DNA of 64,000 bases. It comes from Candidatus Saccharimonadota bacterium (GTDB lineage: Bacteria > Patescibacteriota > Saccharimonadia > Saccharimonadales > AQU-01). The notes beneath the pieces were generated by a model. It searched no databases. It was given only the letters and a program-made list of their open reading frames with translations, and was not told where the DNA came from. Position 1 is the first letter of the stretch. Each line of letters begins with the position of its first letter. Both the position numbers and the translations under genes were made by a program. The stretch lies in contig JAHBAU020000007.1 in assembly GCA_018499905.2 (NCBI GenBank), positions 11,408-75,407 of the forward strand, given 5' to 3'. Positions 11,302-60,745 of the stretch are shown here, in pieces.

Positions 11302-11883
11302 ATGATCAAGGCCATAATCTTTGACTGCTACGGCGTGTTGGTGGGGACGGGGTTTTGGAATATTTATAACCGTGCGGGTGGTGATGCCGACAAAGACAAG
11401 GTGTTTATTAATGATTGGCTGCATCGTAACAGCCTGGGCGAAGTTACTGGCGAAGAATTAACTGAGGCCATGGCCAAAGAGCTTGGTATAACTGTGGCTG
11501 AGTGGCGGCGGTACATTGAAGAAGACGAAGTGCCATCACCCCAGTTACTGGATTTAATTCGGACGCGGTTGCTGGGAAAGTATAAACTGGCGGTCATTAG
11601 CAATGCCGGCCGCGGCGCGCTTGATAGGAAGTTATCAAAAGAGCAACAAGCTTTGTTTGACGCAGTGATTGTGTCGGCCGAAGTTGGGTTAGTCAAACCT
11701 GACCCAGCAATCTTTGCCTACGCCTGCGAAAAGCTGGGTGTTGACCCCAAACAAACAGTGTTTATTGATGACCACGAGGAGTACCTGGCTGGTGCTCAAA
11801 GTCTTGGCATCAAAACCATTCTGTATAAAAATTTTGAAGATTGTCATAACCAGCTAGTACAATTGTTGGCTAAGGAGAGCTAA
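11302..11883 (+). CDS. HAD-superfamily hydrolase
   Basis: Motif I is IIFDCYGVL and motif IV is FIDD. It is 193 aa and a paralog of 14836..15417. Confidence 0.7.
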   Translation: MIKAIIFDCYGVLVGTGFWNIYNRAGGDADKDKVFINDWLHRNSLGEVTGEELTEAMAKELGITVAEWRRYIEEDEVPSPQLLDLIRTRLLGKYKLAVISNAGRGALDRKLSKEQQALFDAVIVSAEVGLVKPDPAIFAYACEKLGVDPKQTVFIDDHEEYLAGAQSLGIKTILYKNFEDCHNQLVQLLAKES

Positions 11884-43321: not shown

Positions 43322-44969
43322 CTAACCCAACCTGTTCTTGTTTATTTGCTTGTGTTGTGTCTCTTGTATCGCTATGCTCAACATCTAACCCTACCTTGTT
43401 TACAGTTAATGAAGTAGCATATGCTGGTATTTTTCCGCATATTCTTACGTTCTCCTTCGTTGCTATTATTTTATCAACTATTTTCCTCACAGTAAAAAGC
43501 TTGTCCTCGTAGCCCAGATTATTTAGGTACTTCTTGAATGGCTCTACGGAGGTTTCTAGATCAATCTCTCTTAATTGTGCTAACTTATTGGCTTCAGGCT
43601 TATTCATCAAGTCTGTAAGCTCTTTACGGCGTCTGGCGACACTGTTCATCTGGTCTGTATACACAGCTTCTGACATTGTGCCCAGACCCCAAGCTTTAAC
43701 GTAACGGCGTTCTTCTTGTTCAAGTGCTTTGAGTTGCATTCTCAGCTCATCTTTTTTAGGGCTTTGACCTGCTTGTAACTTCTTTTCTTCAGCGTAACGA
43801 TCGAGTTGCTGTTGTAACAGGGTAGGGTCTGTCATCAATTCACAGAGTTTAGCCCAGCCAATAGCATCTAGTACCTGCACATTCACACCAGCCTCAAAGC
43901 AAGTACGAGGCTTAGGGAATTTCAGCAAGCGATCTGTGCAGCGGTAGTAGAAGTGACCGTTCTGACCCTCGCCAGTTCTTGTAGCTCCACAAGGACAAGA
44001 TATTAAACCACCAAAAAGATAGGGATTTTTCTTGAAGCGTTGACTGAGCTTACCGTTGCTTTTAATTTGTGCATTGGCTTTCTGGAATAGCTCATCAGTA
44101 ATGATGCGAGGCACTTCTACTTCAATCCACTCATCACGTGGTCTGGTTTTACGACTGCCTTTTAATGAGTGACGATTCTGATATTTCTTCTGAGTTTTAG
44201 CAGTTGGATTTTTTGTTATCACACTTTCTGACTTGTAGTAGTAGTGTTTGCCAGTGTAAGTTTCATTTTTCAGCATGCGATGCAGAGGACCGTTAGTCCA
44301 AGTATCACGCTTCTGTTTCTTAGGTTGTATACCTAGATCGTATAAGCGACGAATGACCTCTTTAATTGATACACACTCAACACCAATCCACTCAAAAATC
44401 ATTCTTACTACTTTGGCTTCTTCTTCGTTAATCACGAATTGACCGTTGATTTTATCTAAGCCTTTGCCCTTGATCGGAATATAATCATAGCCATAAGGAG
44501 ATTGATAACCCAGCAACTTACCCGAACGTACCTTATTGAGTTTACCAATACGAAAACGTTCTGAAATTTTCATACGTTCGTATTCATGGAATATGCCCAT
44601 TACACCACCCATGAGCTTTTCTTCTGCTGAAATACCGTTAATGTCGTGCAGGCTCTTAAATGTAATTTCTAAATTGGTTAATTCTTCAATGACGATCTCT
44701 TGGTATACATACTTACGGGCTAAACGCCCCTTATCGTAGACATACAAAATATCAAACTTCTTCTCACGTGCATCAGCCCTCATATTATCTAGTGCAGGGC
44801 GTTCAAGTATTGCACCTGACCAACCTTCATCAACATACTCACAGCTTTCGAGAAGGGTATTACCGTCATCAATTATGGCTTTTCGTATTTCAGTTAATTG
44901 GTTTTGTACAGTTTCTTCATCTTTCTGAAGTTCAGTACTTACTCTTGCGTACAGTGCAGCACGTAACAT
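43266..44969 (-). CDS. Large serine recombinase
   Basis: Catalytic N-terminus AALYARVSTELQ, then a recombinase domain and a zinc ribbon (CPCG...YYRC) followed by a coiled-coil-like region. The 3' end overlaps ychF by 56 nt. Confidence 0.9.
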   Translation of the reverse strand: MLRAALYARVSTELQKDEETVQNQLTEIRKAIIDDGNTLLESCEYVDEGWSGAILERPALDNMRADAREKKFDILYVYDKGRLARKYVYQEIVIEELTNLEITFKSLHDINGISAEEKLMGGVMGIFHEYERMKISERFRIGKLNKVRSGKLLGYQSPYGYDYIPIKGKGLDKINGQFVINEEEAKVVRMIFEWIGVECVSIKEVIRRLYDLGIQPKKQKRDTWTNGPLHRMLKNETYTGKHYYYKSESVITKNPTAKTQKKYQNRHSLKGSRKTRPRDEWIEVEVPRIITDELFQKANAQIKSNGKLSQRFKKNPYLFGGLISCPCGATRTGEGQNGHFYYRCTDRLLKFPKPRTCFEAGVNVQVLDAIGWAKLCELMTDPTLLQQQLDRYAEEKKLQAGQSPKKDELRMQLKALEQEERRYVKAWGLGTMSEAVYTDQMNSVARRRKELTDLMNKPEANKLAQLREIDLETSVEPFKKYLNNLGYEDKLFTVRKIVDKIIATKENVRICGKIPAYATSLTVNKVGLDVEHSDTRDTTQANKQEQVGLDAKYWDCWAAECWEVDTV

Positions 44970-45339: not shown

Positions 45340-47529
45340 TTAAGCCTTTGGTTGCTCCAAATTAGTAACCCCACCATGCTCACCACTATATTGTTCTGGC
45401 TCAATTAGTTGAGGGAAGATAAGTTTGTTGCGTTTATCGTAGGGGTCTTTTTCTTGGGTTATCAAGCCAGCTGCTTCGAGCATCGGTAAGATTTGACGAC
45501 GAAGAATATCGTCATTAGGCAAGCGATTTTCAAGTTCATAGTGACGATGAATGATCTCTTTGCGACTGACACCAGCATCGTCTCCAATTTGTTTAGAGTT
45601 CGGCTCACGATCTGCATTCTTTGCTACATAGATAGGCACAATGTATTTCTTGTAGAACTCGTAAGTATAGGGCGGTATGTTAAGCTCTTGGCTCTTGTTT
45701 ATCTTTTGCCAAACCTCAAATCCTTGATCAATGTCAGATTGAGTTGCAACTACATTTCCATTATCAGCACGGCGATACCAGACATTAAGCAGGGTTATGC
45801 ACTTGATAATTGATAGAAGGTGGCTCACATCACGCTGGTGACGTGGCTTAGTTGATTGAACATGGCTTAAGAAGCGACGCTCAATGATATTGGGGTCGGG
45901 TACTACAATGTCGTCTACGTGCTCTTGTTTAATCGCCAGTACACGGTCTTTAAGTTGCTGACGTTCTGGGCTTGCCTCAATTTTCGCCAAGAACTCAGCT
46001 TTGTTGGCATTACGGAGCGTAGCCATATGCACACCCTCTTGTACTTTTTCAATAGTTGTTTCGGGGCTCAACAATATCGCACGAGTCGCTTCTTGCTCAT
46101 CGAGACGCATACCTGCTGAACAAAAAATTGTTGCAGGAAATCCACGAATAATAATGTTTTTCGCACGGTTAGAACCTTTTTGGTTCTTATCTGTTATCTT
46201 GTAAGAAATCTCTTTCTTGTCATGAGACATTACAGGACGTAAGTTCTCCTGCAATTTGGGATTTGGCTGCTCAAGAAACACTAGAATCTTACGCTCAAGA
46301 TCAACAATGTAGCAGTTACGATCCTTATCAAAGCTGGCGTTATCATGGAAAAACGCCGTTGGTGATGCACCACCAAATTGACGTACATCTGCATCTGGGA
46401 AGTATTGAGCTACTTGGGTTGGAATGTAGGTCTTACCAGTCGATGACGGTGCATTGAAGCTTACATTTAGCTGACTGTCTTCTGTGTAGGCTGATAGCAT
46501 GCACAAGAAGCTGACTAGCTTATTCTCGTTGTCATGCTTGATTGTTAGATCGAGCACTGATGCTAGTTCTGAAGTTGTAATTTCTTTGAAGGTACTGACA
46601 TCTATCGGTTTTGGACCAGAGCGTAATTCTGCATACTTATCAAATAGATCGCTTGGATCAGCGTTTGGTAATTTGAAGTAATCTGTAATATCGCCATGTG
46701 CACCAACTTCGTGGGGGAGGGAAATTTGCAGTACTGAAGTTGAGGGTAGTGCTTGCGATAGTTTTTCGATAAGCTCGTTAGCACCTTGTTCGCCAGCCTC
46801 ATCGTTATCGAAGCATATGTATAAATGACGCACAGACGTGAGCTGATCAATCCATTCTTGTTTGAAGGTACGAGCACCAGCAGTAGAAGATATGGCTGGT
46901 ATACCAAATGCACGCAATACTAAGCAATCAAATTCACCTTCACAAATTACTAGTTGGTCAGGTTTTTCTTTTAAGATTTCAGCATTGAATATTGCACCTT
47001 CACCACCAGTAGACATATATTTTGCACTTCCAGAAGCTACGAAAGGGTCTTGACGTAATTTCATGAATTGCACAGTGCCAGAAGCATCACGAACGGGGAT
47101 CGTTACCCAGCTCTTACCGTAGAATTCGCCGTAGCCTAGTTCATAATCATCAATATCTTCCTCTAGCAATAAGCGATCATTTTTCAGCCACTCACGAATG
47201 TTTAGTGGCAGCTGATTGTGGTATTTTGTAGCTAATTTCGTAGGGCTAGAGGGTTGGTCAAAAGTTTGACGGGTGAGAGTTTCAGGAGTGATTCCGAATG
47301 CTTTATTTAAGCCATTCATACCGCCATTTTCTCCGCACTTGTGACAATAATATTGACCCGTATTGGCATTTATATATAAATGGGCTTCATTCCCACGGCT
47401 ATCAGCATCGCAGTCGTTGAAAATACAGTGGGTGATTAGTTCATTGCCACGTTCACGAAAATCTATATTGCTGTCTTTGAGCATGTCTTTAATGTTTTGA
47501 GTAGGGTAGGAATTCATAGCGAACTCCAC
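45340..47529 (-). CDS. Primase-helicase-like replication protein (Zn finger, TOPRIM, P-loop)
   Basis: Zn finger HCIFNDCD...YYCHKCG. TOPRIM motifs ICEGEFDCLV and ICFDNDEAGEQG. Walker A FNAPSSTGKTY. Confidence 0.7.
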   Translation of the reverse strand: MEFAMNSYPTQNIKDMLKDSNIDFRERGNELITHCIFNDCDADSRGNEAHLYINANTGQYYCHKCGENGGMNGLNKAFGITPETLTRQTFDQPSSPTKLATKYHNQLPLNIREWLKNDRLLLEEDIDDYELGYGEFYGKSWVTIPVRDASGTVQFMKLRQDPFVASGSAKYMSTGGEGAIFNAEILKEKPDQLVICEGEFDCLVLRAFGIPAISSTAGARTFKQEWIDQLTSVRHLYICFDNDEAGEQGANELIEKLSQALPSTSVLQISLPHEVGAHGDITDYFKLPNADPSDLFDKYAELRSGPKPIDVSTFKEITTSELASVLDLTIKHDNENKLVSFLCMLSAYTEDSQLNVSFNAPSSTGKTYIPTQVAQYFPDADVRQFGGASPTAFFHDNASFDKDRNCYIVDLERKILVFLEQPNPKLQENLRPVMSHDKKEISYKITDKNQKGSNRAKNIIIRGFPATIFCSAGMRLDEQEATRAILLSPETTIEKVQEGVHMATLRNANKAEFLAKIEASPERQQLKDRVLAIKQEHVDDIVVPDPNIIERRFLSHVQSTKPRHQRDVSHLLSIIKCITLLNVWYRRADNGNVVATQSDIDQGFEVWQKINKSQELNIPPYTYEFYKKYIVPIYVAKNADREPNSKQIGDDAGVSRKEIIHRHYELENRLPNDDILRRQILPMLEAAGLITQEKDPYDKRNKLIFPQLIEPEQYSGEHGGVTNLEQPKA

Positions 47530-49232: not shown

Positions 49233-49401
49233 GATGAAATAATTACGGTAATCTTACCCGTTATCAACAGCTAAATCTGGAAAAAAATTTGTAAGCAGTT
49301 GCACTACATTTTTACTGATGTAAAAAGTGAACGACATAACCTCAAATAATATACCCTCTAGGATCTACATAGAGGTCATAAGAGGTGTTTTTGGACAAAA
49401 G
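49233..49401 (+). repeat. Direct repeat copy 1 (about 170 bp)
   Basis: Aligns with 55971-56140. Exact shared runs are aaaaagtgaacgacataacct (21 nt), agaggtcataagagg (15 nt) and acggtaatctta (12 nt). Confidence 0.8.
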
Positions 49402-49505: not shown

Positions 49506-50369
49506 ATGCAAGAAAAACATGATGAAGTCATTGAGGGTGTTGAAAATAATGAACAGAAACCTACCAAAAAGCACAAACTAGGTAAGCGTTCGAAGATAGT
49601 AGTAGCTCTGTTAGTCGTCGCTGTGCTTTTACCTCTATCTTATGCTGGCTATGTATATGCTGCTTCACCTGACGTTATTCGTAAACCCAAGCTAGAACAC
49701 TATCATTTTAGAATGCAGGTATTGGTTGACGGTAAAGCGGAAGACTTTAGTACTCAGGGCTACCAGACAGGCTACGCCAAAGACCAATGTAACGCTAACC
49801 TGCCAGAACAGCCTATTCACTTCCACGACAATAAAGACCAGTTTACCCATATTCACTGGGAAGGCATGACAGGCGGTATGGTTATGAAGTATTACGGTTG
49901 GGACTTTATAGGTGGTATGAAAAATGCACTGGGCTATAAGCTAGATAATCCGAAAGACCCGCAGAAAGTAACCACGCACGGTAACTACCTGCCAGCCATT
50001 CCGAACGATGCAAGGTTCTATATTTATACTGGTGATGAAAATGGCTATCAAGAAAAGAACTTTGAGGATTGGAAAAACCAAGACCTTGAGCAGTTCTTTA
50101 ATAAGACCAGCAACTTCCCAGCTCACGAACAAAACAAACAATCTAGCTTATTAGATAAAGTCTTCCCTAAAGCTAATGCTCATGGCGGCGAAGATGACGG
50201 CAATGATGGTGAGCCTGGCGAAGAAACCGAACAAGAAAAGCTAACTCGTATCAATAATATGGTAGGAAATGTCGTTATTTTTGTGCAAAAAGACAAGCCT
50301 ACCGACCAGCAAATTAAAGAGCGTTTTAATGACCTTGAACCACTTACGGACAGTACATGCGGCGGTTAA
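49506..50369 (+). CDS. Membrane-anchored secreted protein with His motifs
   Basis: N-terminal TM segment. HYHFRMQVLVDGK...PIHFHDNKDQFTHIHWE, then an acidic C-terminus. TATAAT lies 7 nt upstream of the ATG. Confidence 0.5.
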   Translation: MQEKHDEVIEGVENNEQKPTKKHKLGKRSKIVVALLVVAVLLPLSYAGYVYAASPDVIRKPKLEHYHFRMQVLVDGKAEDFSTQGYQTGYAKDQCNANLPEQPIHFHDNKDQFTHIHWEGMTGGMVMKYYGWDFIGGMKNALGYKLDNPKDPQKVTTHGNYLPAIPNDARFYIYTGDENGYQEKNFEDWKNQDLEQFFNKTSNFPAHEQNKQSSLLDKVFPKANAHGGEDDGNDGEPGEETEQEKLTRINNMVGNVVIFVQKDKPTDQQIKERFNDLEPLTDSTCGG

Positions 50370-50695
50370 GCAAAATCACTTTGAAAACATTTGCCACACT
50401 TTTTGTAGGTGTGCTTTTGCTCACTTGCTCATTGGGTGTTTTGTCTTCACACACAGGTGAGGCAAGCCAGCAGAAAGTAAGTTGTAGTTCGTCTTGTCAT
50501 TCTCATGGACAATCAACAGCTATAAACAGTCAAGCTAATAAAGACGAAGATGATAAAGAGCCTACGCCACCACCGTTTAGCTGGTTTCAAATACCCGCCA
50601 ACCTAGCGTTGTTATATGTAATGCCAGTTTTTGGTGTTTTATGGTTCGTTAGTAATAAGCAAAAGATACTACTGACCACGCAACTCAGATTTTGA
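50357..50695 (+). CDS. Small membrane protein with a CxxxC motif
   Basis: Signal/TM segment, CSSSCHSH, an acidic stretch and a C-terminal TM segment. It is a paralog of 56472..56840. Confidence 0.45.
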   Translation: MRRLSKITLKTFATLFVGVLLLTCSLGVLSSHTGEASQQKVSCSSSCHSHGQSTAINSQANKDEDDKEPTPPPFSWFQIPANLALLYVMPVFGVLWFVSNKQKILLTTQLRF

Positions 50696-50740
50696 GATTA
50701 CTTAAGTATCCAGAGTAATTTTAAAAATAAGGAGTTTGTT

Positions 50741-51394
50741 ATGAGCGGTAAAGGATTTTGGATTGTATTAGCGGTAATTTTAATAGGCTTCATTGGTGTT
50801 ATAACCTATACCAAAAAAGATAAAGCGGCAGAGAGTGGCTCAACAGCTAGTTCGCAAGGCTCGCAGAACTATTACGGCAAAATGGATAGCCCCGTTACTA
50901 TTACGGAGTTTGTAGATTTTCAGTGTGAAGCTTGTTATGCCTACTACCCGTATGTTAAGCAAGTAAAAGAAATTTACAAAGACAAAGTACGTTTTCAAGT
51001 ACGTAATTTTCCTATAACATCAGGGCATCAGTTTGCTTTCCAAGCTGCCAGATCAGCGGAGGCTGCTGCACGACAAGGCAAGTTCTGGGAAATGCACGAC
51101 AAGATTTTTGAAGGACAAAAACAATGGGAGCAAACCCAAAACCCACAAAGCTACTTTGATCAATACGCCGAAGATATTGGCTTAGACATGGAAAAATACC
51201 GTACTGATCGTGATAGTTCAGATGTAGCAGCCGTCATCAATAAAGACTTGGCAGATGTGAAAGAAATCGGTGGAACTGGGACGCCAACTTTTGCGATAAA
51301 TGGAGTGAAAGTAGACAAAACAGAGCCTAGTGTAGAAGGACTTTCCAAGATGATTGACGATGCACTTGCAAATCAAGGTGGAAGCAATGAGTAG
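50741..51394 (+). CDS. DsbA-family thiol:disulfide oxidoreductase
   Basis: N-terminal TM segment, active site FQCEACY (CxxC) and a cis-Pro loop GTGTPTF. Confidence 0.8.
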   Translation: MSGKGFWIVLAVILIGFIGVITYTKKDKAAESGSTASSQGSQNYYGKMDSPVTITEFVDFQCEACYAYYPYVKQVKEIYKDKVRFQVRNFPITSGHQFAFQAARSAEAAARQGKFWEMHDKIFEGQKQWEQTQNPQSYFDQYAEDIGLDMEKYRTDRDSSDVAAVINKDLADVKEIGGTGTPTFAINGVKVDKTEPSVEGLSKMIDDALANQGGSNE

Positions 51395-51899
51395 TAAAAA
51401 GAAAACAATACTGTTTTTTCTCCTCCTATTTTTTACAGCCGTAATTACAATTGCAATACAGGCAGCAGTTCAGAGCAGCACCTCAAAAAACGATCAGGAA
51501 AATACCGCTGCGTCTGCTCACGATGAAACAAACAGCGACGGTCATCATAATAGCGACAGTGAAGAATTAGGTGACGTAGTTGATTTGACGAATCAAAACG
51601 AAGTCTCAATGGACATAAAAGATTTTAAGTATGAGAAATCGAACATAAAGATAAAAAAAGGTACGAATGTAACGTGGACTAATCAAGACGAAGTCCAGCA
51701 CAATGTAATGCAAGAACACGAAAACGATAATGACGCTCACGATGCACCGTCTAAAGATGAAGAAAAGCCTGATGTTTTAGCAAGTCGATTGCTATCTAGA
51801 GGAGAAAGCTACAGTTACACGTTCAATGAAGTCAGCACTAGCCCATACCACTGTTCTCCACACCCCTATATGAAAGGCTCGGTAACTGTCGTTGAATGA
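51387..51899 (+). CDS. Amicyanin-like cupredoxin
   Basis: Signal peptide. The type-1 Cu ligand pattern is QHNV...YHCSPHPYMKGSVTV. The start overlaps the dsbA-like stop. Confidence 0.8.
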   Translation: MSSKKKTILFFLLLFFTAVITIAIQAAVQSSTSKNDQENTAASAHDETNSDGHHNSDSEELGDVVDLTNQNEVSMDIKDFKYEKSNIKIKKGTNVTWTNQDEVQHNVMQEHENDNDAHDAPSKDEEKPDVLASRLLSRGESYSYTFNEVSTSPYHCSPHPYMKGSVTVVE

Positions 51900-52593
51900 T
51901 CAAGACTTCTCTAATGTTAATAGCGTAAAAAAGCATAAGATAATTTTTGCGATCGGGGTGTTTCTTGTAGTGGTTTTAATGACTCTGGTTTCTTTACGAG
52001 TAATTTCAAAGATACCTGATACACCAACAGAATCGGTTACTGAGTCTACCACACAAACGCCTAGCAGTGATCCGTTAGCTTCTATGATTCAGCCTGTACA
52101 AGGTGCTGTAGGAGATGAGTTTGATGCGAAATACGTCGAGTTATTATTTGTGCATAATGCAATCAGTACAGCAATGGCTAATTTAGTTAAAGATAGCCAA
52201 GATAAGGAGATTCGAGAATTTGCAGACTATATAATACGCTCAAATGTGGCAAGTAATGAAAAACTTCTTACGTGGTCTAAAGATCTGAAGGCAAGTACTA
52301 GTCCACCGAAACAAACAGACGTAGACACGATTGTTGCAAACCTGACAAGCAATTCAGGTGAGGAGCGGGATCATCAGTTCGTTTTGGATATTATTGACCA
52401 TCTAGCGGGCTCAACAACGTTGTCAAAGTATGCAATATCTAATAGTGACAACAGCGAAATTAAGAATTTTGCTAATCAACTAATTACTGATGAAAGTACT
52501 CAAGCTGAGACTTTTCAAAAATGGGCACGAACCGTCAGTTTCGATAGCGATGACAGACAAACTTTTAACCATGACAAGCATGATAATTATTAA
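51892..52593 (+). CDS. DUF305-like protein with degenerate His motifs
   Basis: TTG start overlaps the cupredoxin stop. It has the two-repeat layout of DUF305, but reads FVHNAISTAMA and IIDHLAGSTTL instead of HHxGA(I/V)xMA. Confidence 0.45.
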   Translation: MNDQDFSNVNSVKKHKIIFAIGVFLVVVLMTLVSLRVISKIPDTPTESVTESTTQTPSSDPLASMIQPVQGAVGDEFDAKYVELLFVHNAISTAMANLVKDSQDKEIREFADYIIRSNVASNEKLLTWSKDLKASTSPPKQTDVDTIVANLTSNSGEERDHQFVLDIIDHLAGSTTLSKYAISNSDNSEIKNFANQLITDESTQAETFQKWARTVSFDSDDRQTFNHDKHDNY

Positions 52594-52704
52594 ATGATGA
52601 GGGGGATAATAACGTGGGTAAGATAAGAATCTTTGTCAGTCTCAATGCACTTTATGAAGATGAAGTAATGTCAGACACTTTAGAGCTAAGGTTGTTGAAT
52701 AAAT

Positions 52705-54042
52705 ATGCCAATTGATACTGATGCTGCAAGGGCTTTAATGGCGGATAGTCTCGGCTTTCATATCATTTTTGCGTTGCTTGGTGTTGGATTGCCATTGGTA
52801 ATATTGCTTATAGAACAGCTTGGGTTACGAAGAAAAGACCCGCTTATTTTAGAGCATGCCAAGCGACTATCTTACGCTACGGTAATCTTGGTTGTTGCAG
52901 GCGTAGCATCTGGTACTATCATTTCAATTCAAATGTCACTAATGTGGGGTAACTTGATTGAGTTCGGTGGCCAAATTATGGGACTTGCTTTCGGTTGGGA
53001 AGGTTACGCTTTTATGTTGGAGGCTGTGTTCCTTGCGTTTTATGTTTCTACCTGGGGTATAATAAAGGGCTGGAAGCATTGGTTGCTAGGCGTACCTGTA
53101 GCTATTGGCTCGTTTGGGTCAGCATTTGCAATTACTCTTGGCAATGCTTGGATGCAGAATCCAGGTGTGCTTAATGTTGTTGAAGGCGTGGTACAGACCG
53201 ACAATCCAGTACGAGAATTGTTCACTAAAACCGCATTCTTTATGGTTAGTCATTCGGTTGCTGGCTATTACCTTGCCACGCTACTGTGCGTACTTGGGAT
53301 TTATGCCTTTTATACATTGAAATTTAAGCCTAGCGGCAAAGACCAAAATGCTGTCAGGCAGATTATGTTTCGTCTGTCGGCTACTGCGGTGTTCTTTGTT
53401 GCTGTTACTGCAGTGCTTGGACACTTCCAGTCGCAATACTTAGCAGAGTCGCAGCCCAGAAAGTTCGCAGCGATAGAACTAAACGAGGAAACTCGTACGA
53501 ACGCACCGTACATTATTGGGGGACACTGGAAAGAGGACGGCACAGTTGAAGGCGGTATTCGTATACCAAATATGCTAAGTATCTTGGCTGGCAACAGTCT
53601 ATCTACGGAGGTTAAAGGTTTACAAGACTTCCCGAAAGATACGTGGCCAATGCTTTTTGTGAATATCTTGTTTGAGTCAAAGTTGCTCCTAGTCGCCATT
53701 GTATCTAGTGTGTCAATTTTGTTTACGGTATTACATTATAAAAGGCTAAACGAAAAGTACCGTGCTTGGCGATACAAAAAACCACTACTTATTGCGTTAT
53801 TGCCGCTCGGTCCATTAACGATAATAATCGTAGAACTTGGCTGGATGGTAGCAGAATTTGGTCGCCAACCATTCGTGGTTAATGGCTATATGCGTACTGA
53901 CCAAGCCTTTTCGGGACAGATAGGCTCATGGGGTTACATATTCCCAATACTATTCGTAGTTCTCTTTATTGTTACCACAATAGCCCTCTGGTTGCTGTTT
54001 AAGAAACAGGGCAAAATTAAACCAGCGAAAGGCTTGCTGTAG
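52705..54042 (+). CDS. cydA: Cytochrome bd-type oxidase subunit I
   Basis: 445 aa. TM1 carries a His (LGFHIIFALLG). GWEGYAFMLEAVFLAFY and FGRQPFVV also match CydA. The Q-loop is short. Confidence 0.8.
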   Translation: MPIDTDAARALMADSLGFHIIFALLGVGLPLVILLIEQLGLRRKDPLILEHAKRLSYATVILVVAGVASGTIISIQMSLMWGNLIEFGGQIMGLAFGWEGYAFMLEAVFLAFYVSTWGIIKGWKHWLLGVPVAIGSFGSAFAITLGNAWMQNPGVLNVVEGVVQTDNPVRELFTKTAFFMVSHSVAGYYLATLLCVLGIYAFYTLKFKPSGKDQNAVRQIMFRLSATAVFFVAVTAVLGHFQSQYLAESQPRKFAAIELNEETRTNAPYIIGGHWKEDGTVEGGIRIPNMLSILAGNSLSTEVKGLQDFPKDTWPMLFVNILFESKLLLVAIVSSVSILFTVLHYKRLNEKYRAWRYKKPLLIALLPLGPLTIIIVELGWMVAEFGRQPFVVNGYMRTDQAFSGQIGSWGYIFPILFVVLFIVTTIALWLLFKKQGKIKPAKGLL

Positions 54043-54560
54043 TGTCTGCCCTCTGGTTCGTTGTCGTGCCACTAATGGTTTACATACCGATGTTTCTAGT
54101 TGAGCTGTATATTGCATTTCGTCGCATCGGTAAGCCATTAGACAAGGGGGGTGAGTATCTTCATGCCACTTGGGAGGCAACCCATACTTTTCTGGTATTG
54201 GCACTCAACTATTTTATGTGGTTATACAGTTCAGCAATAGTTGATGTTGCGAGGTCAGTATTTATCCCGCTCATAATGTTTGGTGCTGTTTTTATTGTTC
54301 GGGCAATCCTGTACATTTACTTGTTCTATATAAAAAAATCTACCAAGCCCAACCTAATAGCGGATTGGGCTTTTGCCTTGTGCCATGTCGTAATGCTTGT
54401 CTGTATAAGTTACGTAACTATTACGACTGCCCAAATACTGCTTGGCGGTGACTATGAATCAAATCACATCCTACTACCATTGTTGTATCCAGGGCTATTT
54501 TTGATGATTCCGCTAGTGAGTGTGCCGCTTTACTTCTTGTACAAGACGAGGGGCAAATAG
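54042..54560 (+). CDS. Small polytopic membrane protein; possible non-canonical oxidase partner
   Basis: GTG start overlaps the cydA stop as TAGTG. At 172 aa and about 5 TM spans it is half the canonical CydB size. ATWEATHTFLVL faintly recalls the CydB WDGNEVWL motif. Confidence 0.35.
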   Translation: MSALWFVVVPLMVYIPMFLVELYIAFRRIGKPLDKGGEYLHATWEATHTFLVLALNYFMWLYSSAIVDVARSVFIPLIMFGAVFIVRAILYIYLFYIKKSTKPNLIADWAFALCHVVMLVCISYVTITTAQILLGGDYESNHILLPLLYPGLFLMIPLVSVPLYFLYKTRGK

Positions 54561-54563
54561 ACT

Positions 54564-55046
54564 ATGGATAGGATCACAATTTTTGCTGCTCAATATTTGA
54601 TATACATAATAGCGATTACTATACTTTTTTACGTATTACTTAGGTTACCAAGAGGCGAACTAAAAACATTTATCACCTTGTGTGGTATGGGCATAGTAGC
54701 GGCATTCATTATGGTTAAGGTAGCTGGAAGCATTTACTACAATCCACGTCCATTTGTAGACGGTAATTTTATGCCATTATTTCCGCACAGCTCTACAAAC
54801 GGCTTTCCTTCAAACCACACAGTAGCGGCAGTTCTGGCTGCGTTATTGTTATGGCGGTATAGTAGAAATGTTGCAGTAGGATTGTTTATCGCTGCATGTT
54901 TAGTTGGACTGGCTAGGGTATTAGCTAGCGTTCATCACATAGAAGACATTATCGGGGGCATTGTCATAGCAACCTTTGCAGCTTTATTCGCTAACCTAGT
55001 ACTTCACCATATTTCGAATCGTAAAGTATCCAAGACAGATAACTGA
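54564..55046 (+). CDS. PAP2-family phosphatase
   Basis: Motifs YYNPRP, PSNH and RVLASVHHIEDI (SR-x5-H-x3-D type). Confidence 0.7.
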   Translation: MDRITIFAAQYLIYIIAITILFYVLLRLPRGELKTFITLCGMGIVAAFIMVKVAGSIYYNPRPFVDGNFMPLFPHSSTNGFPSNHTVAAVLAALLLWRYSRNVAVGLFIAACLVGLARVLASVHHIEDIIGGIVIATFAALFANLVLHHISNRKVSKTDN

Positions 55047-55058
55047 TAGAATTACACT

Positions 55059-55949
55059 ATGGCACACTCACACAAAACAGAAATAAAAGACGGTAGTATA
55101 AAGTTCGGGCTTGTCCTCAACAGTTTGTATACGATAGTTGAGTTTGGCTTTGGTTTATTTACAGGCTCTCTAGCTTTAATTGCCGACGCTACACATAATC
55201 TCACTGATACTTTTACGCTAAGTGTTTCTTATGGTGCTAATCGGCTGGCAAGACGTGAAGCAAACGAGAGCAAAACATTTGGATATGGACGTGCCACAAT
55301 CCTTGCGGCATTACTCAATGCCAGCGTAATGATTGCAGTCGCAGTCTTTATTGCTTTTGAAGCTATACAGCGATTACAGAACCCTGTAGAGATTGAGGGT
55401 GGTATTGTTGCAGCAGTTGCAGCAGTAGGTATAGTGGTGAATGGCTCAATAGCTTATGTGCTGTCAAAGAACCGTAAAGACCTGAATATGCGGAGTGCCT
55501 TTATAGATATGGCATTCGACGCTTTATCTTCGTTTGGAGCAATGATAGCTGGTTTGATTATGTTATTCACAGACATACTGTATGTAGATAGTGTAGTTGG
55601 CTTACTAATTGCAGGACTCTTGCTATACAACACGCTTAAAATACTAAAAGAAGCGGTGCAGATATTACTTGAGGGAACTCCCAAAGACTTAGACATAACA
55701 GCCATCACACAAGCAATAAATGATACAGATAAAGTACTATCAGTTGATGATATGCACGTCTGGACGATACGTTCTGGTTATAACGCACTTAGCTGCCACA
55801 TTGCTATTGATGAAAAAGACCTAACAGAAAGTCGCAATATAGTAGAGTCAGTAAAAGCCAAGCTACGGAATGTACACGATATTCAGCACGCTACTATTGA
55901 AGTTGAGCTAGAAGACTGCACCACACACGAAGAACACGAAAGCCACTAG
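55059..55949 (+). CDS. Cation diffusion facilitator (CzcD/ZitB-like) exporter
   Basis: TM2 has ADATHNLTD and TM5 has IDMAFDAL. A C-terminal cytoplasmic domain and a His-rich tail (HEEHESH) follow. Confidence 0.85.
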   Translation: MAHSHKTEIKDGSIKFGLVLNSLYTIVEFGFGLFTGSLALIADATHNLTDTFTLSVSYGANRLARREANESKTFGYGRATILAALLNASVMIAVAVFIAFEAIQRLQNPVEIEGGIVAAVAAVGIVVNGSIAYVLSKNRKDLNMRSAFIDMAFDALSSFGAMIAGLIMLFTDILYVDSVVGLLIAGLLLYNTLKILKEAVQILLEGTPKDLDITAITQAINDTDKVLSVDDMHVWTIRSGYNALSCHIAIDEKDLTESRNIVESVKAKLRNVHDIQHATIEVELEDCTTHEEHESH

Positions 55950-55970
55950 AGCAGTTAAGACGTACTAGCA

Positions 55971-56140
55971 GACGAAATAATCACGGTAATCTTATTCGTG
56001 ATTGATAGCAATAATTGAGGGGAAAAAATTGTGAGCAGATACTTTACATTATTCTGGTTCAAAAAGTGAACGACATAACCTTAAATAATCTACCCTTCAG
56101 AAGTTACACAGAGGTCATAAGAGGGGTGTGATGACAAAAG
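55971..56140 (+). repeat. Direct repeat copy 2 (about 170 bp)
   Basis: Same orientation as 49233-49401 and shares its exact runs. Confidence 0.8.
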
Positions 56141-56149
56141 ATAAATAAG

Positions 56150-56179
56150 TTGACTAATACCCCTAGGGGGTATTAAGAT
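56150..56179 (+). promoter_or_regulatory. Promoter with an embedded CsoR-type operator
   Basis: TTGACT at 56150-56155 and TAAGAT at 56174-56179. The perfect palindrome ATACCCCTAGGGGGTAT (56157-56173) fills the spacer. The ATG lies 6 nt after the -10. Confidence 0.6.
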
Positions 56180-56185
56180 AATTGT

Positions 56186-56470
56186 ATGAGAACTGACATC
56201 AAAAAACGGGCAAGCCACCGCACTAAGATTATTGAAGGCCAGATCAAGGGCTTGCAGAAAATGATTGATAACGAAGACTATTGCATGGACATACTGACTC
56301 AAAGCCTTGCTATTCAGAAGTCACTCTCCTCTCTTAATAAGCTAGTTTTAGAAAATCATATAACCACTCACATCACTGATATGCTTGCTTCTGGAAAAGA
56401 AAATGAACAAACAAAAGCTCTGGATGAACTTATGAAACTTTACGAGCTTAATAACATTAGGGGTAAATAA
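56186..56470 (+). CDS. CsoR/RcnR-family metal-sensing repressor
   Basis: RTKIIEGQIKGLQKMI...DYCMDILTQSLAIQ...ENHITTHI. The ligand positions read Cys33, His58 and His62. Confidence 0.85.
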   Translation: MRTDIKKRASHRTKIIEGQIKGLQKMIDNEDYCMDILTQSLAIQKSLSSLNKLVLENHITTHITDMLASGKENEQTKALDELMKLYELNNIRGK

Positions 56471-56471
56471 C

Positions 56472-56840
56472 TTGAAGCACCTATTCGCCCTTAAGAACAT
56501 AGCCGTAATAGTTGCGGTATTGTTTCTAAATTCAGTAGCTTCTTTAGCTCACACTTCTGCAATGCCAGCAATGACGCATGAGGTGAATGGTGGTATGAAG
56601 TACAGCTCAAGTGATTCTGCCTCGTGTGCCACGCTGTGCCGAACAGCCGTGCTTAATAAAGATGAATCTATAGATTCTGATTATGACGAAGAAAATGATG
56701 AACCTGCCGTACCTTTCTATTTGCTTACCAAAGCTGAGCAGTTTAACGACAACACAGTAAACCAAAAGATATATGCAGAATCCGTAAAGCCACCACCTAA
56801 GATACCGATATATATTCTCTACGGTGTCTTTAGGGTTTAG
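56472..56840 (+). CDS. Small secreted/membrane protein with a CxxxC motif
   Basis: TTG start 2 nt after the csoR-like stop. Signal segment, CATLC and an acidic stretch. It is a paralog of 50357..50695. Confidence 0.4.
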   Translation: MKHLFALKNIAVIVAVLFLNSVASLAHTSAMPAMTHEVNGGMKYSSSDSASCATLCRTAVLNKDESIDSDYDEENDEPAVPFYLLTKAEQFNDNTVNQKIYAESVKPPPKIPIYILYGVFRV

Positions 56841-56889
56841 GATTCGTTCTACGCTTTAACGACATTCTTAAATTTAATCTGGAGAACAT

Positions 56890-57570
56890 ATGAAAAAGAA
56901 TAAAAGTAATAAGAACAACATCATTGTAGTGGCGATTGTCGCCATAGTAGCGATAGCAGGAGTCAGTATCTATGCTATGAGTAATGATGATGGGATGATG
57001 GGCGACAACAATATGATGGGTAATAACTCATCACAACAAGCAAGTTCAAGCAGTCTCGTAGACAAGAACTCAGCTGAATACAAAATGTACATCGAACTTA
57101 CTAGTGATGACTATGACCGTATGTTTATTGCCAATATGATTGAGCATCATAAGGGTGCTGTCGACATGGCAGAACTAGCGTTAACCAATGCAAAACACCA
57201 AGAGCTAAAAGATATGGCTAATAACATCATAGCGGCTCAAAGCAAAGAAATAACAAACATGGAAGCTTGGCAGAAGGATTGGGGATACCCAAGTAGTAGC
57301 GGTGAGATGATGATGGATCACTCGGCAATGGGTATGATGGCTGATATGGGTCAAATGACTGAAGAGCTAAAGAGTTTAACGGGCGATGCTTTTGACAAGG
57401 CTTTTTTGGCTTCAATGATTGAGCACCACCAGTCGGCAATAAATATGGCTTACCCAGGTCAGACAAATGCTAAGCACGATGAGGTAAAAACATTAACACA
57501 GGCAATCGTAGACGCTCAGAGTAGTGAAATTGCCCAGATGAGGCAATGGCAAAAAGACTGGGCTTACTAG
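56890..57570 (+). CDS. DUF305-family protein (canonical)
   Basis: Signal/TM segment. Two repeats read FIANMIEHHKGAVDMA and FLASMIEHHQSAINMA. The N-terminal region is Met-rich. Confidence 0.8.
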   Translation: MKKNKSNKNNIIVVAIVAIVAIAGVSIYAMSNDDGMMGDNNMMGNNSSQQASSSSLVDKNSAEYKMYIELTSDDYDRMFIANMIEHHKGAVDMAELALTNAKHQELKDMANNIIAAQSKEITNMEAWQKDWGYPSSSGEMMMDHSAMGMMADMGQMTEELKSLTGDAFDKAFLASMIEHHQSAINMAYPGQTNAKHDEVKTLTQAIVDAQSSEIAQMRQWQKDWAY

Positions 57571-57581
57571 GTTAAAGTACT

Positions 57582-59600
57582 ATGGACCATTCTCAACATG
57601 AACACCACCGAACGGAGCATCAGGAGCACGACAAACATGCTGGTCATTCAGTAGCAATGTTCAAAGATAAGTTCTGGTTGTCATTGTTACTAACTATACC
57701 CGTGCTCATATATAGCGAAATGATACAGCACTGGCTCGGCTTCACGCCACCAGCATTTCCTGGCTCGCAATATGTGCCGTTTGTGTTTAGTACCATCATC
57801 TTTTTCTATGGCGGAATTGTGTTCATAAAGGGTGCTATTAGTGAGCTAAGGGCTAGATTGCCAGGGATGATGACACTTATCAGCTTGGCAATTATCACAG
57901 CCTACGCATACAGCGTTGCTACACAGTTCTTCATTGACGGAGAGGGTTTCTTTTGGGAACTCGCAACCCTAGTAACAATTATGTTGCTAGGGCACTGGCT
58001 AGAAATGGCTTCAGTCGCAAAAGCTGAGAATGCCCTAGACGCAATATCACAGTTGCTACCTGACAAGGCAGAAAAGCTAGTCAATGGCAAACCAAAACAA
58101 GTGTTAGTTAGTGAGCTTAGTGTTGGTGACTTAGTACTAGTACGTCCAGGAACAAGAATACCGATTGACGGTGTAATAACAGACGGTAGCTCATCGATTG
58201 ATGAAGCGGCTATTACAGGTGAATCAAAGCCTGTAAGTAAGACAGTTAATGATGAGGTTGTTGCAGGTACAGTGAATCAGGACGGCTCAATAACAGTGAA
58301 AGTTACCAAGCTAGGAGACGACACAGCACTAGCAGGAATTATGCGACTAGTTGCCGAAGCCCAAAGCTCAAAATCTAATGTTCAAGTGCTGGCGGATAAA
58401 GCAGCTTTTTACCTAACGATCATAGCTATAAGTACTGCTATTGTTACTTTCGTTTACTGGTTGGTTGCTAAAGATATGAATTTCGCTCTAGAACGAGCCG
58501 TTACGGTACTAATTATTGCTTGTCCTCACGCACTTGGTTTGGCGATACCTCTAGTTGTATCAATATCAACTGCATTATCAGCAAAGAATGGATTACTCGT
58601 TCGTAAAAGACTGGCTCTTGAATCAGCACGTAAATTAGATTGGGTGCTATTTGACAAGACTGGCACACTGACTAGAGGCGAACACGGCGTTACAGACATA
58701 TGGGCTACAAAAGGCTATAACAAAGAAGACATAATCCATCTCACTGCAAGCCTTGAGCAAAACAGTGAACATATTGTTGGTAAAGGCATTGTACGAAAAG
58801 CCGAAGAAGACCATATTCATCTAGATAAAGTAACCAATTTTAAGGCTTTGCCAGGTCTAGGCGTGCAAGGTTCTCTACATGGTAGTGAAGTGTATATTGC
58901 AGCCAGCTATCGATACGTTGAAGAAAACAAGCTAACAGTTCCTGCTGACATAGCTAAAGTAGTTAAGCAAGCTGCAGAAGAGGGCAAAACAGAGGTTTAT
59001 CTGATAAAAAATAATAAAGTTGTTGGAGCATTAGGATTAGCCGACATAGTACGTGAACAATCTAAGCATGCCATAAGAACACTCAGAGAAATGGGTATTA
59101 AGACAGCTATGATTACAGGTGATTCTGATGAGGTTGCAGCATATGTATCAAAGCAGCTTGGCTTGGACCAGTACTTTGCAGAGGTTAGACCAGAAGACAA
59201 GGCTGCCAAGGTAAAGGAATTGCAGAAAAATGGACAAAAAGTCGCTATGGTAGGAGATGGTATCAATGACGCACCAGCCCTTACACAAGCAGACATAGGC
59301 ATAGCTATTGGTGCGGGTACTGATGTGGCTATTAAGTCGGCAGATATTATTCTCGTAAAAAGCGATCCCCAAGACGTAGTAAAGGTAATAAACCTATCAA
59401 AAGCTACGTATAGGAAAATGAGCCAGAATCTAGTTTGGGCTACTGGTTATAACGTCTTTGCGATACCTTTGGCTGCTGGTGTGTTGTATGGAGCTGGCAT
59501 AGTGCTTGCCCCTGCACTTGGAGCAATCCTAATGTCGGTTTCAACAGTTGTTGTAGCAATAAACGCACAATTACTTCGCAAAGCAAAGCTTAGTTCATAA
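57582..59600 (+). CDS. copB: P1B-type ATPase, CopB-like (CPH motif, His-rich N-terminus)
   Basis: N-terminus MDHSQHEHHRTEHQEHDKHAGH. TM6 CPH at 58521-58529, DKTGT at 58653-58667 and GDGINDAP. Confidence 0.9.
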   Translation: MDHSQHEHHRTEHQEHDKHAGHSVAMFKDKFWLSLLLTIPVLIYSEMIQHWLGFTPPAFPGSQYVPFVFSTIIFFYGGIVFIKGAISELRARLPGMMTLISLAIITAYAYSVATQFFIDGEGFFWELATLVTIMLLGHWLEMASVAKAENALDAISQLLPDKAEKLVNGKPKQVLVSELSVGDLVLVRPGTRIPIDGVITDGSSSIDEAAITGESKPVSKTVNDEVVAGTVNQDGSITVKVTKLGDDTALAGIMRLVAEAQSSKSNVQVLADKAAFYLTIIAISTAIVTFVYWLVAKDMNFALERAVTVLIIACPHALGLAIPLVVSISTALSAKNGLLVRKRLALESARKLDWVLFDKTGTLTRGEHGVTDIWATKGYNKEDIIHLTASLEQNSEHIVGKGIVRKAEEDHIHLDKVTNFKALPGLGVQGSLHGSEVYIAASYRYVEENKLTVPADIAKVVKQAAEEGKTEVYLIKNNKVVGALGLADIVREQSKHAIRTLREMGIKTAMITGDSDEVAAYVSKQLGLDQYFAEVRPEDKAAKVKELQKNGQKVAMVGDGINDAPALTQADIGIAIGAGTDVAIKSADIILVKSDPQDVVKVINLSKATYRKMSQNLVWATGYNVFAIPLAAGVLYGAGIVLAPALGAILMSVSTVVVAINAQLLRKAKLSS

Positions 59601-59629
59601 GTAGAATACGTCGTTGGTGGCATTAAAGT

Positions 59630-60361
59630 TTACTGAATAGGCTTAGCACTACGCTTACTATCTACATTAAAATGCCACACATCGTCATGTTCATACCTTG
59701 CAAGTGCAATGGTAAGATTAGGTGCAGTTGGCTTACTAAGATATATGACTCTTGCAATATCTAATGCTGGTAGTTGATACCAGACTACGTATACATCCGC
59801 AAATACCTCTATTGCTTGTTTTGCACCCTTGCGGATTCCTTCAATCTCTATCTCACCTGCTTGACTGTATATATTTACAATCAATGCACAGTTATCAGGA
59901 TAATCAGCACGCCTAGCAGCCTTCTTGTTGATTTGTGTAATTACGTGAGCATTGCTTACCTTTGTTGCTGGAAAATAGCCCTGCACCATTACCTGCTGGA
60001 CAAGCATTTTTGCGTGAGCTTGATCATGCCATATAGCACCGTCTGATAATACATTTTCAGTCTGAGCCTTTGCAGAATCTTCAATACCTACGAAGGCTTG
60101 GTAAGTGTTTTTTGTACCTGCTTGCTCTGCAACCCATTGATAGTACGAAACAACAGCTCCAAGACCCATTAGCTCACCTGCGTTAAGGTCGATGGTTGTA
60201 CCGCTTGCAAAATTCGCTGGCAAATCAATTGAGTTTAATTTAGCAATGGGACGATTATTGAGCAGTAAGCTTATCTTGTCTTTCGTAGACTTACCGTCGT
60301 ACATACCTAAGACTATCTTAATTGCGTTATCTGGGTGTAGACCAACTCCATCAAAATTCAT
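59630..60361 (-). CDS. Hypothetical protein (243 aa)
   Basis: Clear ORF convergent with copB. No motif recognised. Confidence 0.45.
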   Translation of the reverse strand: MNFDGVGLHPDNAIKIVLGMYDGKSTKDKISLLLNNRPIAKLNSIDLPANFASGTTIDLNAGELMGLGAVVSYYQWVAEQAGTKNTYQAFVGIEDSAKAQTENVLSDGAIWHDQAHAKMLVQQVMVQGYFPATKVSNAHVITQINKKAARRADYPDNCALIVNIYSQAGEIEIEGIRKGAKQAIEVFADVYVVWYQLPALDIARVIYLSKPTAPNLTIALARYEHDDVWHFNVDSKRSAKPIQ

Positions 60362-60458
60362 ACTAACAGTATACTGCTAATCAGTGGAGCGTGGCTTGGC
60401 CATGGCCAAGAATTAGCGTTGTGGTATGGAGTATTAAATATAGTGGTGAGTGTGGTGG

Positions 60459-60540
60459 GGTAGCAAAAATCTGGGAAAAAAATTTTCGCAGGGTTACCAA
60501 CCTATATTTTGGGCAAAAAGATGAAAGAACATATTCCTGA
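60459..60540 (+). repeat. Degenerate third copy of the island repeat
   Basis: aaatctgggaaaaaaatt and caaaaagatgaaagaacata align with the core of copies 1 and 2, at roughly 60 percent identity by eye. Confidence 0.45.
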
Positions 60541-60544
60541 GTAT

Positions 60545-60745
60545 TTACCACTTACCGCCAGCAGTTTCTTGTAGTTCTTTGATCTGTTGAGGAGTGTAGC
60601 CACGTGTTCTTTTATCTAGTGGAGGCATCAAGAAGGTTATATCGAATGGTATGGTTGCGTCTTGTGAATACCAATAGATAAGCTCATAGGTGTGCATTAT
60701 ATCCGACAAATCCTCTTGGGTACATTGAAGTGTTTGCAAAATCAA
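60545..60745 (-). CDS. Hypothetical small protein (66 aa)
   Basis: AT-rich ORF at the presumed right end of the island. No motif recognised. Confidence 0.3.
   Translation of the reverse strand: MILQTLQCTQEDLSDIMHTYELIYWYSQDATIPFDITFLMPPLDKRTRGYTPQQIKELQETAGGKW

Follow-up and report, generated by a model that had tools for sequence, protein, structure and literature searches.

A mosaic metal and envelope-redox operon with a predicted minimal cytochrome bd-type quinol oxidase on a putative integrative island of a Saccharibacterium

How do a thiol:disulfide oxidoreductase, a blue-copper protein and a terminal oxidase come to be encoded side by side, and do they form one electron path? The question is raised by module A, a group of nine open reading frames (ORFs), all on the + strand at 49506-55949 of a 64-kb stretch (64,000 nucleotides, positions 11,408 to 75,407 of contig JAHBAU020000007.1, assembly GCA_018499905.2; in the following "the window") from a Candidatus Saccharimonadota bacterium. 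Saccharibacteria are ultra-small epibionts. The host genome of 1.09 Mb is 91% complete, and the gene absences given below for the host are read from this assembly. A first-pass annotation made from the DNA letters had proposed a self-contained electron path from extracytoplasmic thiols or Cu(I) to O2. Our own reading differs: we propose, with modest confidence, that genes for metals and for envelope redox form a mobile mosaic in module A. It would include a minimal bd-type quinol oxidase, which would serve the VKOR route of the host.

The predicted CydA (52705-54042, + strand; Pfam PF01654, 4e-92, 309 bits against a cut-off of 26) belongs to a Saccharibacteria-specific cytochrome bd clade with a short Q-loop. 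It aligns end to end with the enzyme from Geobacillus thermodenitrificans (5DOQ_A, E 4e-67, residues 9-434) and matches the bd-II qOR2 enzyme of M. smegmatis (9R2G) with E 2e-59. The residues H19, E99, E106 and H183, which correspond in Geobacillus to His21, Glu101 and Glu108, the ligands of the two active-site haems and glutamates of the proton channel, and to the b558 ligand His186, are invariant in 113 full-length relatives, and the same is true for K253 and E258 of the quinol-binding Q-loop, the counterparts of Lys252 and Glu257 in E. coli. Six residues lie between the channel glutamates E99 and E106. The Q-loop Lys/Glu pair and the glutamate spacing are the criteria that Murali et al. use for quinol-oxidising qOR enzymes (bioRxiv 10.1101/2021.01.16.426971). 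By these criteria CydA is read as a quinol oxidase of the qOR class, because the quinol-site residues Lys253 and Glu258 are kept.

The downstream gene, which has a single base in common with cydA (54042, + strand), encodes a five-helix partner of 172 amino acids, here called CydP (54042-54560, + strand). Its match to the Pfam family CydB (2.8e-5, 24 bits) stays under the gathering cut-off of 35.6, and a sequence search against the PDB gave no meaningful match. The AlphaFold 2 (AF2) model is a five-helix bundle with a predicted local distance difference test score (pLDDT) of 87.5. The top Foldseek superpositions are CydB chains, with a TM-score of 0.60 for 5DOQ_B at non-significant E-values, and hhalign places residues 43-116 on residues 46-119 of CydB (probability 78%, E 1.9e-5, 73 columns). 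The partner is adjacent to CydA at every locus having downstream DNA, and at every locus it has 170-172 amino acids and a conserved N-terminus; the outgroup partners have 310-386 amino acids. From the profile alignment and the modelled fold, the partner is most likely the N-terminal half of CydB, an assignment that we consider moderately supported. Neither a canonical CydB nor a second CydA was found elsewhere in the host genome. The CydA/half-CydB pair is read as a putative minimal cytochrome bd-type quinol:O2 oxidoreductase. Arg28, His41, Trp44, Glu45, His48 and His115 of the partner are invariant polar residues, for which a proton path or the binding of an additional cofactor would be conceivable roles.

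The position of the axial Met of haem b558 (Met393 in E. coli, Met325 in Geobacillus) is occupied by Lys326 in 113 of 113 clade sequences. The Met is kept in all seven outgroup CydAs, which come from the canonical Saccharibacterial bd (L034), Myxococcaceae and Actinomycetota. In the tree, the clade with Lys and half-size partner has a support of 100/99 and is sister to the canonical Saccharibacterial bd. Such a pair could have ceased to reduce O2 and could have degenerated or been re-purposed; its role in the membrane might then be that of a haem-containing sensor, of a protein that handles haem or quinone or of an electron sink for another acceptor, to give examples. Consistent with this would be the replaced b558 ligand, the lost half of CydB, given that canonical CydB bears O2 and proton channels (bioRxiv 10.1101/2021.01.16.426971), the partner's own invariant His41, His48 and His115, and the apparent lack of haem synthesis, as no ferrochelatase was found in the host genome. 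Nevertheless, we consider a non-oxidase role improbable. Sequence conservation across more than 110 clusters is strong, and no variation is seen in the GRQP motif, the two channel glutamates and the remaining three haem ligands; archaeal CydAA' functions without CydB (bioRxiv 10.1101/2021.01.16.426971); and the host keeps a haem-dependent bo3 oxidase together with haem O synthase, and must therefore have some source of haem.

Support for a role as quinol sink comes from outside the island. In diverged clade members with 64-66% identity, the CydA/partner genes lie among housekeeping genes and without DsbA. At two loci, L073 and L030, the gene immediately after the pair encodes a quinone-dependent dihydroorotate dehydrogenase (DHODH; NF003652, 305 bits, cut-off 267; over two equivalog cut-offs), and this position directly downstream provides independent genomic support for the quinol-sink role. 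After the DHODH gene, three small ORFs and genes for flavodoxin, PAP2, DUF2127, FMN_bind, ApbE and an NQR/Rnf-like NAD-binding reductase follow (L073, 4191-13046; also L030). By its gene content the chromosomal L073 cluster resembles a dense grouping of redox genes with a link to quinone, here in a genome of the candidate phyla radiation (CPR).

With which components could a quinol oxidase work in this host? Two unfused VKOR genes score over cut-off (contigs C31 and C21), whereas neither a DsbB in the host genome nor a VKOR inside the island was found. The statement of the first-pass annotation that DsbB and VKOR are absent therefore holds for the island, but not for the host, which has its VKORs elsewhere. 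The same annotation had held that an ordinary VKOR and quinone pathway elsewhere would make the linkage of DsbA and oxidase unnecessary; of these two, the VKORs are there, whereas a quinone prenyltransferase was not found in the host genome. A UbiA-family match was rejected as a candidate for such a prenyltransferase, the sole UbiA gene being the haem O synthase gene adjoining cyoA. The chromosome further encodes a bo3-type quinol oxidase (CyoA-like; COX1 463 bits), with the haem O synthase scoring over its equivalog cut-off, and a second DsbA-like protein with the active site CPAC. On contig C33, a candidate NDH-2/SQR-class flavoprotein gene, cut by the contig end, lies ~7 kb from cyo, and a weak cupredoxin-like match lies ~6 kb from cyo (loci L004, L045, L069 and L075). 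A soil Saccharibacterium with NDH-2, a blue-copper protein and bo3, in which quinone and haem are presumably scavenged, has been described (PMC6031116), and the gene complement of the present host matches this picture.

We propose the following working of module A. The proteins P1 and P2, the DsbA-like protein and, in this island, the blue-copper protein would constitute an extracytoplasmic set for the handling of copper and thiols. The bd pair would drain electrons from a scavenged quinone pool to O2 and would thereby keep oxidised quinone available for the chromosomal VKORs, which in turn would re-oxidise the DsbA-like proteins. P1, P2, the cupredoxin and the DUF305 protein may bind or buffer copper outside the membrane, while the CDF protein would export a divalent cation and the PAP2 protein might recycle a lipid pyrophosphate carrier. 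Electron flow from DsbA via VKOR or DsbB and quinone to a terminal oxidase and O2 is the classical route (PMC10907172), so the path is not a previously undescribed one. Nor is module A self-contained, because VKOR, quinone and haem must come from the host; the kept quinol site of CydA, the host VKORs, the DsbA paralogue and the bo3 oxidase all argue against the self-contained path. More speculatively, the CydA clade may be an undescribed minimal bd subfamily that is restricted to Saccharibacteria and has a His/Lys-ligated haem b558, and one of its branches, captured by mobile copper/zinc islands, might act there, jointly with the extra DsbA and the orphan-fold, copper-associated P1, as a portable O2-linked sink. 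In these epibionts with reduced genomes, scavenged quinone would thereby stay oxidised and could serve the formation of extracytoplasmic disulfides during metal stress. In the literature searched, generic "cytochrome bd" annotations were all that turned up; neither the bd variant nor islands of this kind were found described for CPR bacteria.

The two proteins that could feed electrons into the oxidase by another way are encoded upstream of it. The membrane-anchored DsbA-like thiol:disulfide oxidoreductase (50741-51394, + strand; Thioredoxin_4 PF13462, 7e-27, 95 bits; DSBA PF01323, 1.9e-14, 54 bits) has the active site CEAC and a cis-Pro loop GTPTF (TP), and is 40% identical to the chromosomal CPAC paralogue (E 4e-58). 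The next gene (51387-51899, + strand; Copper-bind 9e-18) encodes a membrane-anchored type-1 (blue) copper protein, amicyanin-like and with an acidic His-containing insert. All four type-1 ligands (His, Cys-x2-His-x2-Met) align with amicyanin 1AAC (E 4e-13), with HNV and YHCSPHPYM here against YHCTPHPFM in 1AAC/1MDA. We classify the protein by sequence as amicyanin-like rather than as amicyanin, because its score of 59 bits for the amicyanin equivalog TIGR02657 is under the cut-off of 110.

In principle, reduced DsbA, Cu(I) via the blue-copper protein, or both could deliver electrons directly to the bd-like oxidase and O2 without any quinone. The cupredoxin gene abuts cydA in the related loci L012 and L017, and probably did so here before the DUF305 gene was inserted; no DsbB or VKOR lies within the island, no quinone prenyltransferase was found in the host, and another donor might be the reason for the unusual Lys at haem b558, where electrons enter. 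However, the Lys/Glu pair of the quinol site is invariant, and Lys326 is equally present in chromosomal members that have neither cupredoxin nor DsbA and adjoin the quinone-dependent DHODH. The cupredoxin is encoded at only ~5 of the 22 loci that we surveyed, and the host has two VKORs. Furthermore, we know of no bd oxidase that takes electrons from a cupredoxin or a thioredoxin-fold protein. A direct transfer is thus very unlikely. For the passage of electrons from the cupredoxin or Cu(I) into the bd oxidase, as the first-pass annotation had it, we found nothing in favour, the cupredoxin being present in a minority of loci.

What, then, do P1 and P2 contribute? Neither matches a Pfam or NCBIfam family. 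P1 (49506-50369, + strand), a membrane-anchored extracytoplasmic His-motif protein of 287 amino acids, has an N-terminal membrane helix, three His pairs in the motifs HYHF, HFHD and HIHW, and the cysteines Cys95 and Cys285. Its family is small; in a set of 1.84 billion proteins it accounts for 121 clusters when these are drawn at 50% identity. Some diverged members are without the His pairs; in the family alignment Cys95 is invariant and the C-terminal Cys285 nearly so. It is plausible from this conservation that P1 is a substrate of the neighbouring DsbA. The AF2 model of P1 has a pLDDT of 80 and a predicted template modelling score (pTM) of 0.76, and a comparison with the PDB gave no fold neighbour (best E 3.2). 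Among 401 sampled genomes of the order, 47 have P1, and only three of these 47 also have a CydA of the present type. Of 17 P1 loci from genomes that lack this CydA, 12 have a P-type ATPase gene no more than ~2 kb away, and 10 have a CsoR; at L054, L055, L057-L062 and L064, P1 (at ~8000 in each) sits inside CsoR/P-type ATPase operons of several gene orders. Because P1 is embedded in CsoR/ATPase neighbourhoods without this CydA, we propose by genomic association that it is probably a copper-homeostasis accessory protein, independent of the oxidase. P2 (50357-50695, + strand, from ORF reading) comes after P1 in most loci. It has 112 amino acids with hydrophobic N- and C-terminal segments and the motif CSSSCHSH, and shows weak similarity (E 0.002) to a 122-amino-acid protein of the neighbouring module B. 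P2 is probably a membrane-anchored Cys/His protein that is metal- or thiol-active.

Are these genes functionally coupled to the oxidase or do they merely travel with it? Our comparison covered 22 loci of Saccharibacteria, drawn from species-representative genomes. At 13 of them a DsbA relative is encoded no further than 10 kb from this CydA type, usually in the arrangement P1-P2-DsbA and in at least six gene orders. In two other species (L012 and L017), module A is present in the same order on colinear DNA with 73-83% identity, save the DUF305 segment. The co-occurrence in other genomes that the first-pass annotation had asked for is thus found. When the order was sampled evenly with 401 genomes, a CydA of this type, defined by at least 65% identity, was present in seven of them, which belong to six families; the host's own family, represented by four genomes, had none. 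The 13 DsbA-linked loci were not accepted as independent events on the tree, where they are close kin; the linkage therefore goes back to one to few capture events.

It is quite possible, if less so than a coupled function, that the sub-modules share a cargo region and nothing else. The bd oxidase would then scavenge O2 or respire with an NDH-2-type enzyme, for which the flavoprotein near cyo is a candidate, and the DsbA would be a foldase or Cu(I)-binder for P1 and P2. The close kinship of the DsbA-linked loci fits such a co-residence, as do the occurrence of P1-P2-DsbA with CDF, CsoR and ATPase genes where CydA is missing (two loci without this CydA, L048 and L049, read P1-P2-DsbA-CDF), the occurrence of CydA and its partner without DsbA, and the two conserved cysteines of P1 (Cys95/Cys285) and the CxxxC of P2. 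Locus-specific Dsb pairs are documented (PMC10907172); compare DsbL/DsbI with AssT and SrgA with Pef fimbriae. On the other hand, the adjacency of DsbA and CydA is kept through at least six gene orders, which is more than inheritance of one arrangement would give, and a DsbA that acts as oxidase would still need the quinone pool for its re-oxidation.

Several observations weigh against the proposed quinol sink for the VKOR route. With Lys in place of the b558 Met and half of CydB gone, the oxidase chemistry could be changed or abolished. A second sink is also no strict necessity for a host that is already equipped with a bo3 quinol oxidase. VKOR was rejected as a specific partner of this CydA, since it occurs in 298 of the 401 sampled genomes (74% of the order), including all seven that have this CydA type. 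The linkage with DsbA may stem from common ancestry of a single island cargo and not from any selection for coupling. We found no firm link between bd oxidases and copper tolerance in the literature; under other metals, bd oxidase is down with Co in Geobacter and up with Ag in Acinetobacter. Finally, a CsoR-type palindrome, which occurs a single time in the 64-kb window, does not lie upstream of module A. Copper regulation of module A thus has no operator in its favour.

The palindrome belongs to module B (56157-59600, + strand), which comprises, by Pfam matches, a CsoR operator, CsoR, the 122-amino-acid Cys protein, a DUF305 protein and a P-type ATPase, and is, as judged from these families, a copper-sensing and efflux unit beside module A. 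The predicted operator, the perfect 17-bp palindrome ATACCCCTAGGGGGTAT at 56157-56173, is of CsoR type and sits inside a TTGACT/TAAGAT promoter preceding module B. Both modules lie in a stretch with a G+C content of ~40% (across ~44-60.5 kb), against ~48% in the flanks. At one edge of this low-GC island a large serine recombinase is encoded (43266-44969, - strand; Resolvase 1.5e-26, Recombinase 7e-18), which adjoins ychF, and a Toprim primase-like gene is also found at that end. A 25-nt inverted repeat, 92% complementary, has one arm at 45368-45392, where the primase-like gene region has its 3' end, and the other at 60437-60461, at the right end of the island. In other genomes, the relatives adjoin genes for serine recombinase, relaxase and type IV secretion system (T4SS). 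The placement of the gene set on a mobile unit by the first-pass annotation agrees with the low-GC island, its serine recombinase, the T4SS and relaxase genes beside the relatives and the scattered occurrence of this CydA type over six families. We regard it as somewhat probable that module A is an accessory cargo operon on a serine-recombinase integrative island, jointly with the mosaic structure and the quinol-sink role.

The L012 locus is without module B but has the right end of the island (81% identity over 60542-60693; L012 7977-12315 against 55949-60542 of the window). Since L012 shares module A and the right end in the absence of module B, cargo modules are exchanged among related islands. 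Module A itself is, by comparison of loci, a mosaic of separable sub-modules, because P1 is found beside CsoR and ATPase genes without CydA, the CydA/partner genes are found without DsbA, a DUF305 segment is present or absent, and L012 is without module B. Five sub-modules can be told apart: P1, P2 and the DsbA-like protein, joined here by the blue-copper protein; the DUF305/CopM-like protein; CydA with its five-helix partner; the PAP2 phosphatase; and the CDF exporter. The new elements in this mosaic are the clade-specific minimal bd variant, with Lys at the b558 ligand position and a putative half-size CydB, and the orphan copper-associated P1 family. Both occur in organisms which seem to rely on quinone and haem obtained by scavenging.

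The DUF305 segment of ~790 bp (51898-52690) has no counterpart in L012 and L017. These loci are otherwise colinear, and in them cydA comes right after the cupredoxin gene. The segment may represent either a recent insertion here or a deletion in L012 and L017. The encoded degenerate DUF305/CopM-like protein (51892-52593, + strand; DUF305 PF03713, 3e-17, 63 bits, over cut-off; CopM 3.5e-8) has only 18% identity to its paralogue in module B, whose EHH pairs are replaced by VHN and DHL, so that its early description as degenerate is reasonable. Downstream of the bd pair, a PAP2-family lipid phosphatase, undecaprenyl-diphosphatase-like, is encoded (54564-55046, + strand; PAP2 9e-17); its best NCBIfam match is undecaprenyl-diphosphate phosphatase (1e-15, under cut-off). 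PAP2 genes recur within a few kb of this CydA type (L012, L017, L028, L029, L030, L033, L072 and L073), near both island-borne and chromosomal members. The last gene (55059-55949, + strand) encodes a ZitB-like CDF divalent-cation exporter (TIGR01297, 3e-74, 250 bits against a cut-off of 82) with the domains Cation_efflux (PF01545, 1e-42) and ZT_dimer (PF16916). The likeness to ZitB (177 bits) is under the cut-off of that family, so the protein is a predicted divalent-cation exporter to which we assign no metal.

The nine genes are tightly packed on the + strand, and coordinates and family scans agree with the co-directional set of named families given by the first-pass annotation. The genes of P1 and P2 overlap by 13 nt (50357-50369), and 45 nt separate P2 from DsbA. 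DsbA and cupredoxin genes overlap if the cupredoxin starts with ATG at 51387 (its ORF opens with TTG at 51354), and the cupredoxin and DUF305 genes overlap at 51892-51899. The spacing of 111 nt between DUF305 and cydA is the widest within module A; the partner and PAP2 genes are separated by 3 nt and the PAP2 and CDF genes by 12 nt. A promoter and terminator scan found no convincing + strand terminator in the interior of module A, and promoter-like sites were fewer than in shuffled sequences, which left nothing usable. By their spacing, with co-direction, overlaps or short gaps and no convincing internal terminator, the nine genes are predicted to be a single operon. A non-coding repeat with the direct repeat families D1/D2 precedes module A (49233-49401, + strand), and a second copy of ~170 bp from the same families, with ~80% identity, lies upstream of module B (55971-56140).

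In a wider context, no genes for quinone or haem synthesis were found in these Saccharibacteria, and yet quinone-dependent VKOR, bo3, bd and DHODH are encoded, which raises the question of how these enzymes are used. A bd oxidase that is minimal by nature would be a natural experiment of value to the bd field: from it one could learn what subunit II can do without and in which way the ligation of haem b558 tunes electron donor and redox potential. Work on bd oxidases as drug targets is also under way. The loci described here indicate that metal and envelope-redox cargo of considerable size passes between CPR bacteria by way of integrative elements, and copper homeostasis offers a first functional handle on the orphan P1 family. 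Taken together, the nine genes form a mosaic whose components are of known kinds, and do not amount to a new pathway.

Compared with known bd oxidases with a short Q-loop (5DOQ, qOR3; 9R2G, qOR2), the CydA of module A is alike in full-length alignment, ligands, the Lys/Glu pair of the Q-loop and the six-residue spacing of the glutamates. Its clade differs by Lys in place of the b558 Met and by a subunit II of ~172 amino acids and five helices, compared to 310-390 amino acids, and the module A pair further differs in sitting on a mobile island, in a host without detected genes for quinone and haem synthesis. A precedent for a bd-type O2 reductase without canonical CydB is archaeal CydAA' (qOR4a/4b; bioRxiv 10.1101/2021.01.16.426971). 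There, however, the partner is a paralogue of CydA, while the partner in module A is most likely a truncated CydB-like protein and its clade is bacterial and found in Saccharibacteria only.

The pathway from DsbA via DsbB or VKOR and quinone to an oxidase is represented here by a membrane-anchored DsbA, two VKORs and quinol oxidases in one genome, as far as the genes tell. In contrast to the standard arrangement, DsbA and one oxidase are island-borne, VKOR is chromosomal and the quinone presumably comes from scavenging. Module B belongs exactly to the type of the CsoR-controlled copper efflux operons that encode periplasmic copper proteins of the DUF305/CopM kind, and relatives of P1 and of P2/the 122-amino-acid protein are embedded in such operons in other Saccharibacteria; module A is without repressor, operator and ATPase and adds the oxidase, PAP2 and CDF. 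As the nearest functional precedent we regard, by analogy, the Scs system (suppressor of copper sensitivity; scsABCD, Salmonella and relatives), a copper-induced operon with Dsb-like proteins and ScsA, a small putative two-helix membrane protein with a Cys motif (PMC10907172). Module A has neither a CsoR operator nor, as far as was found in the operon, a reductant partner of the ScsB/DsbD type. The likeness, a functional analogy only, lies in a Dsb-like protein that is encoded together with a small Cys-motif membrane protein.

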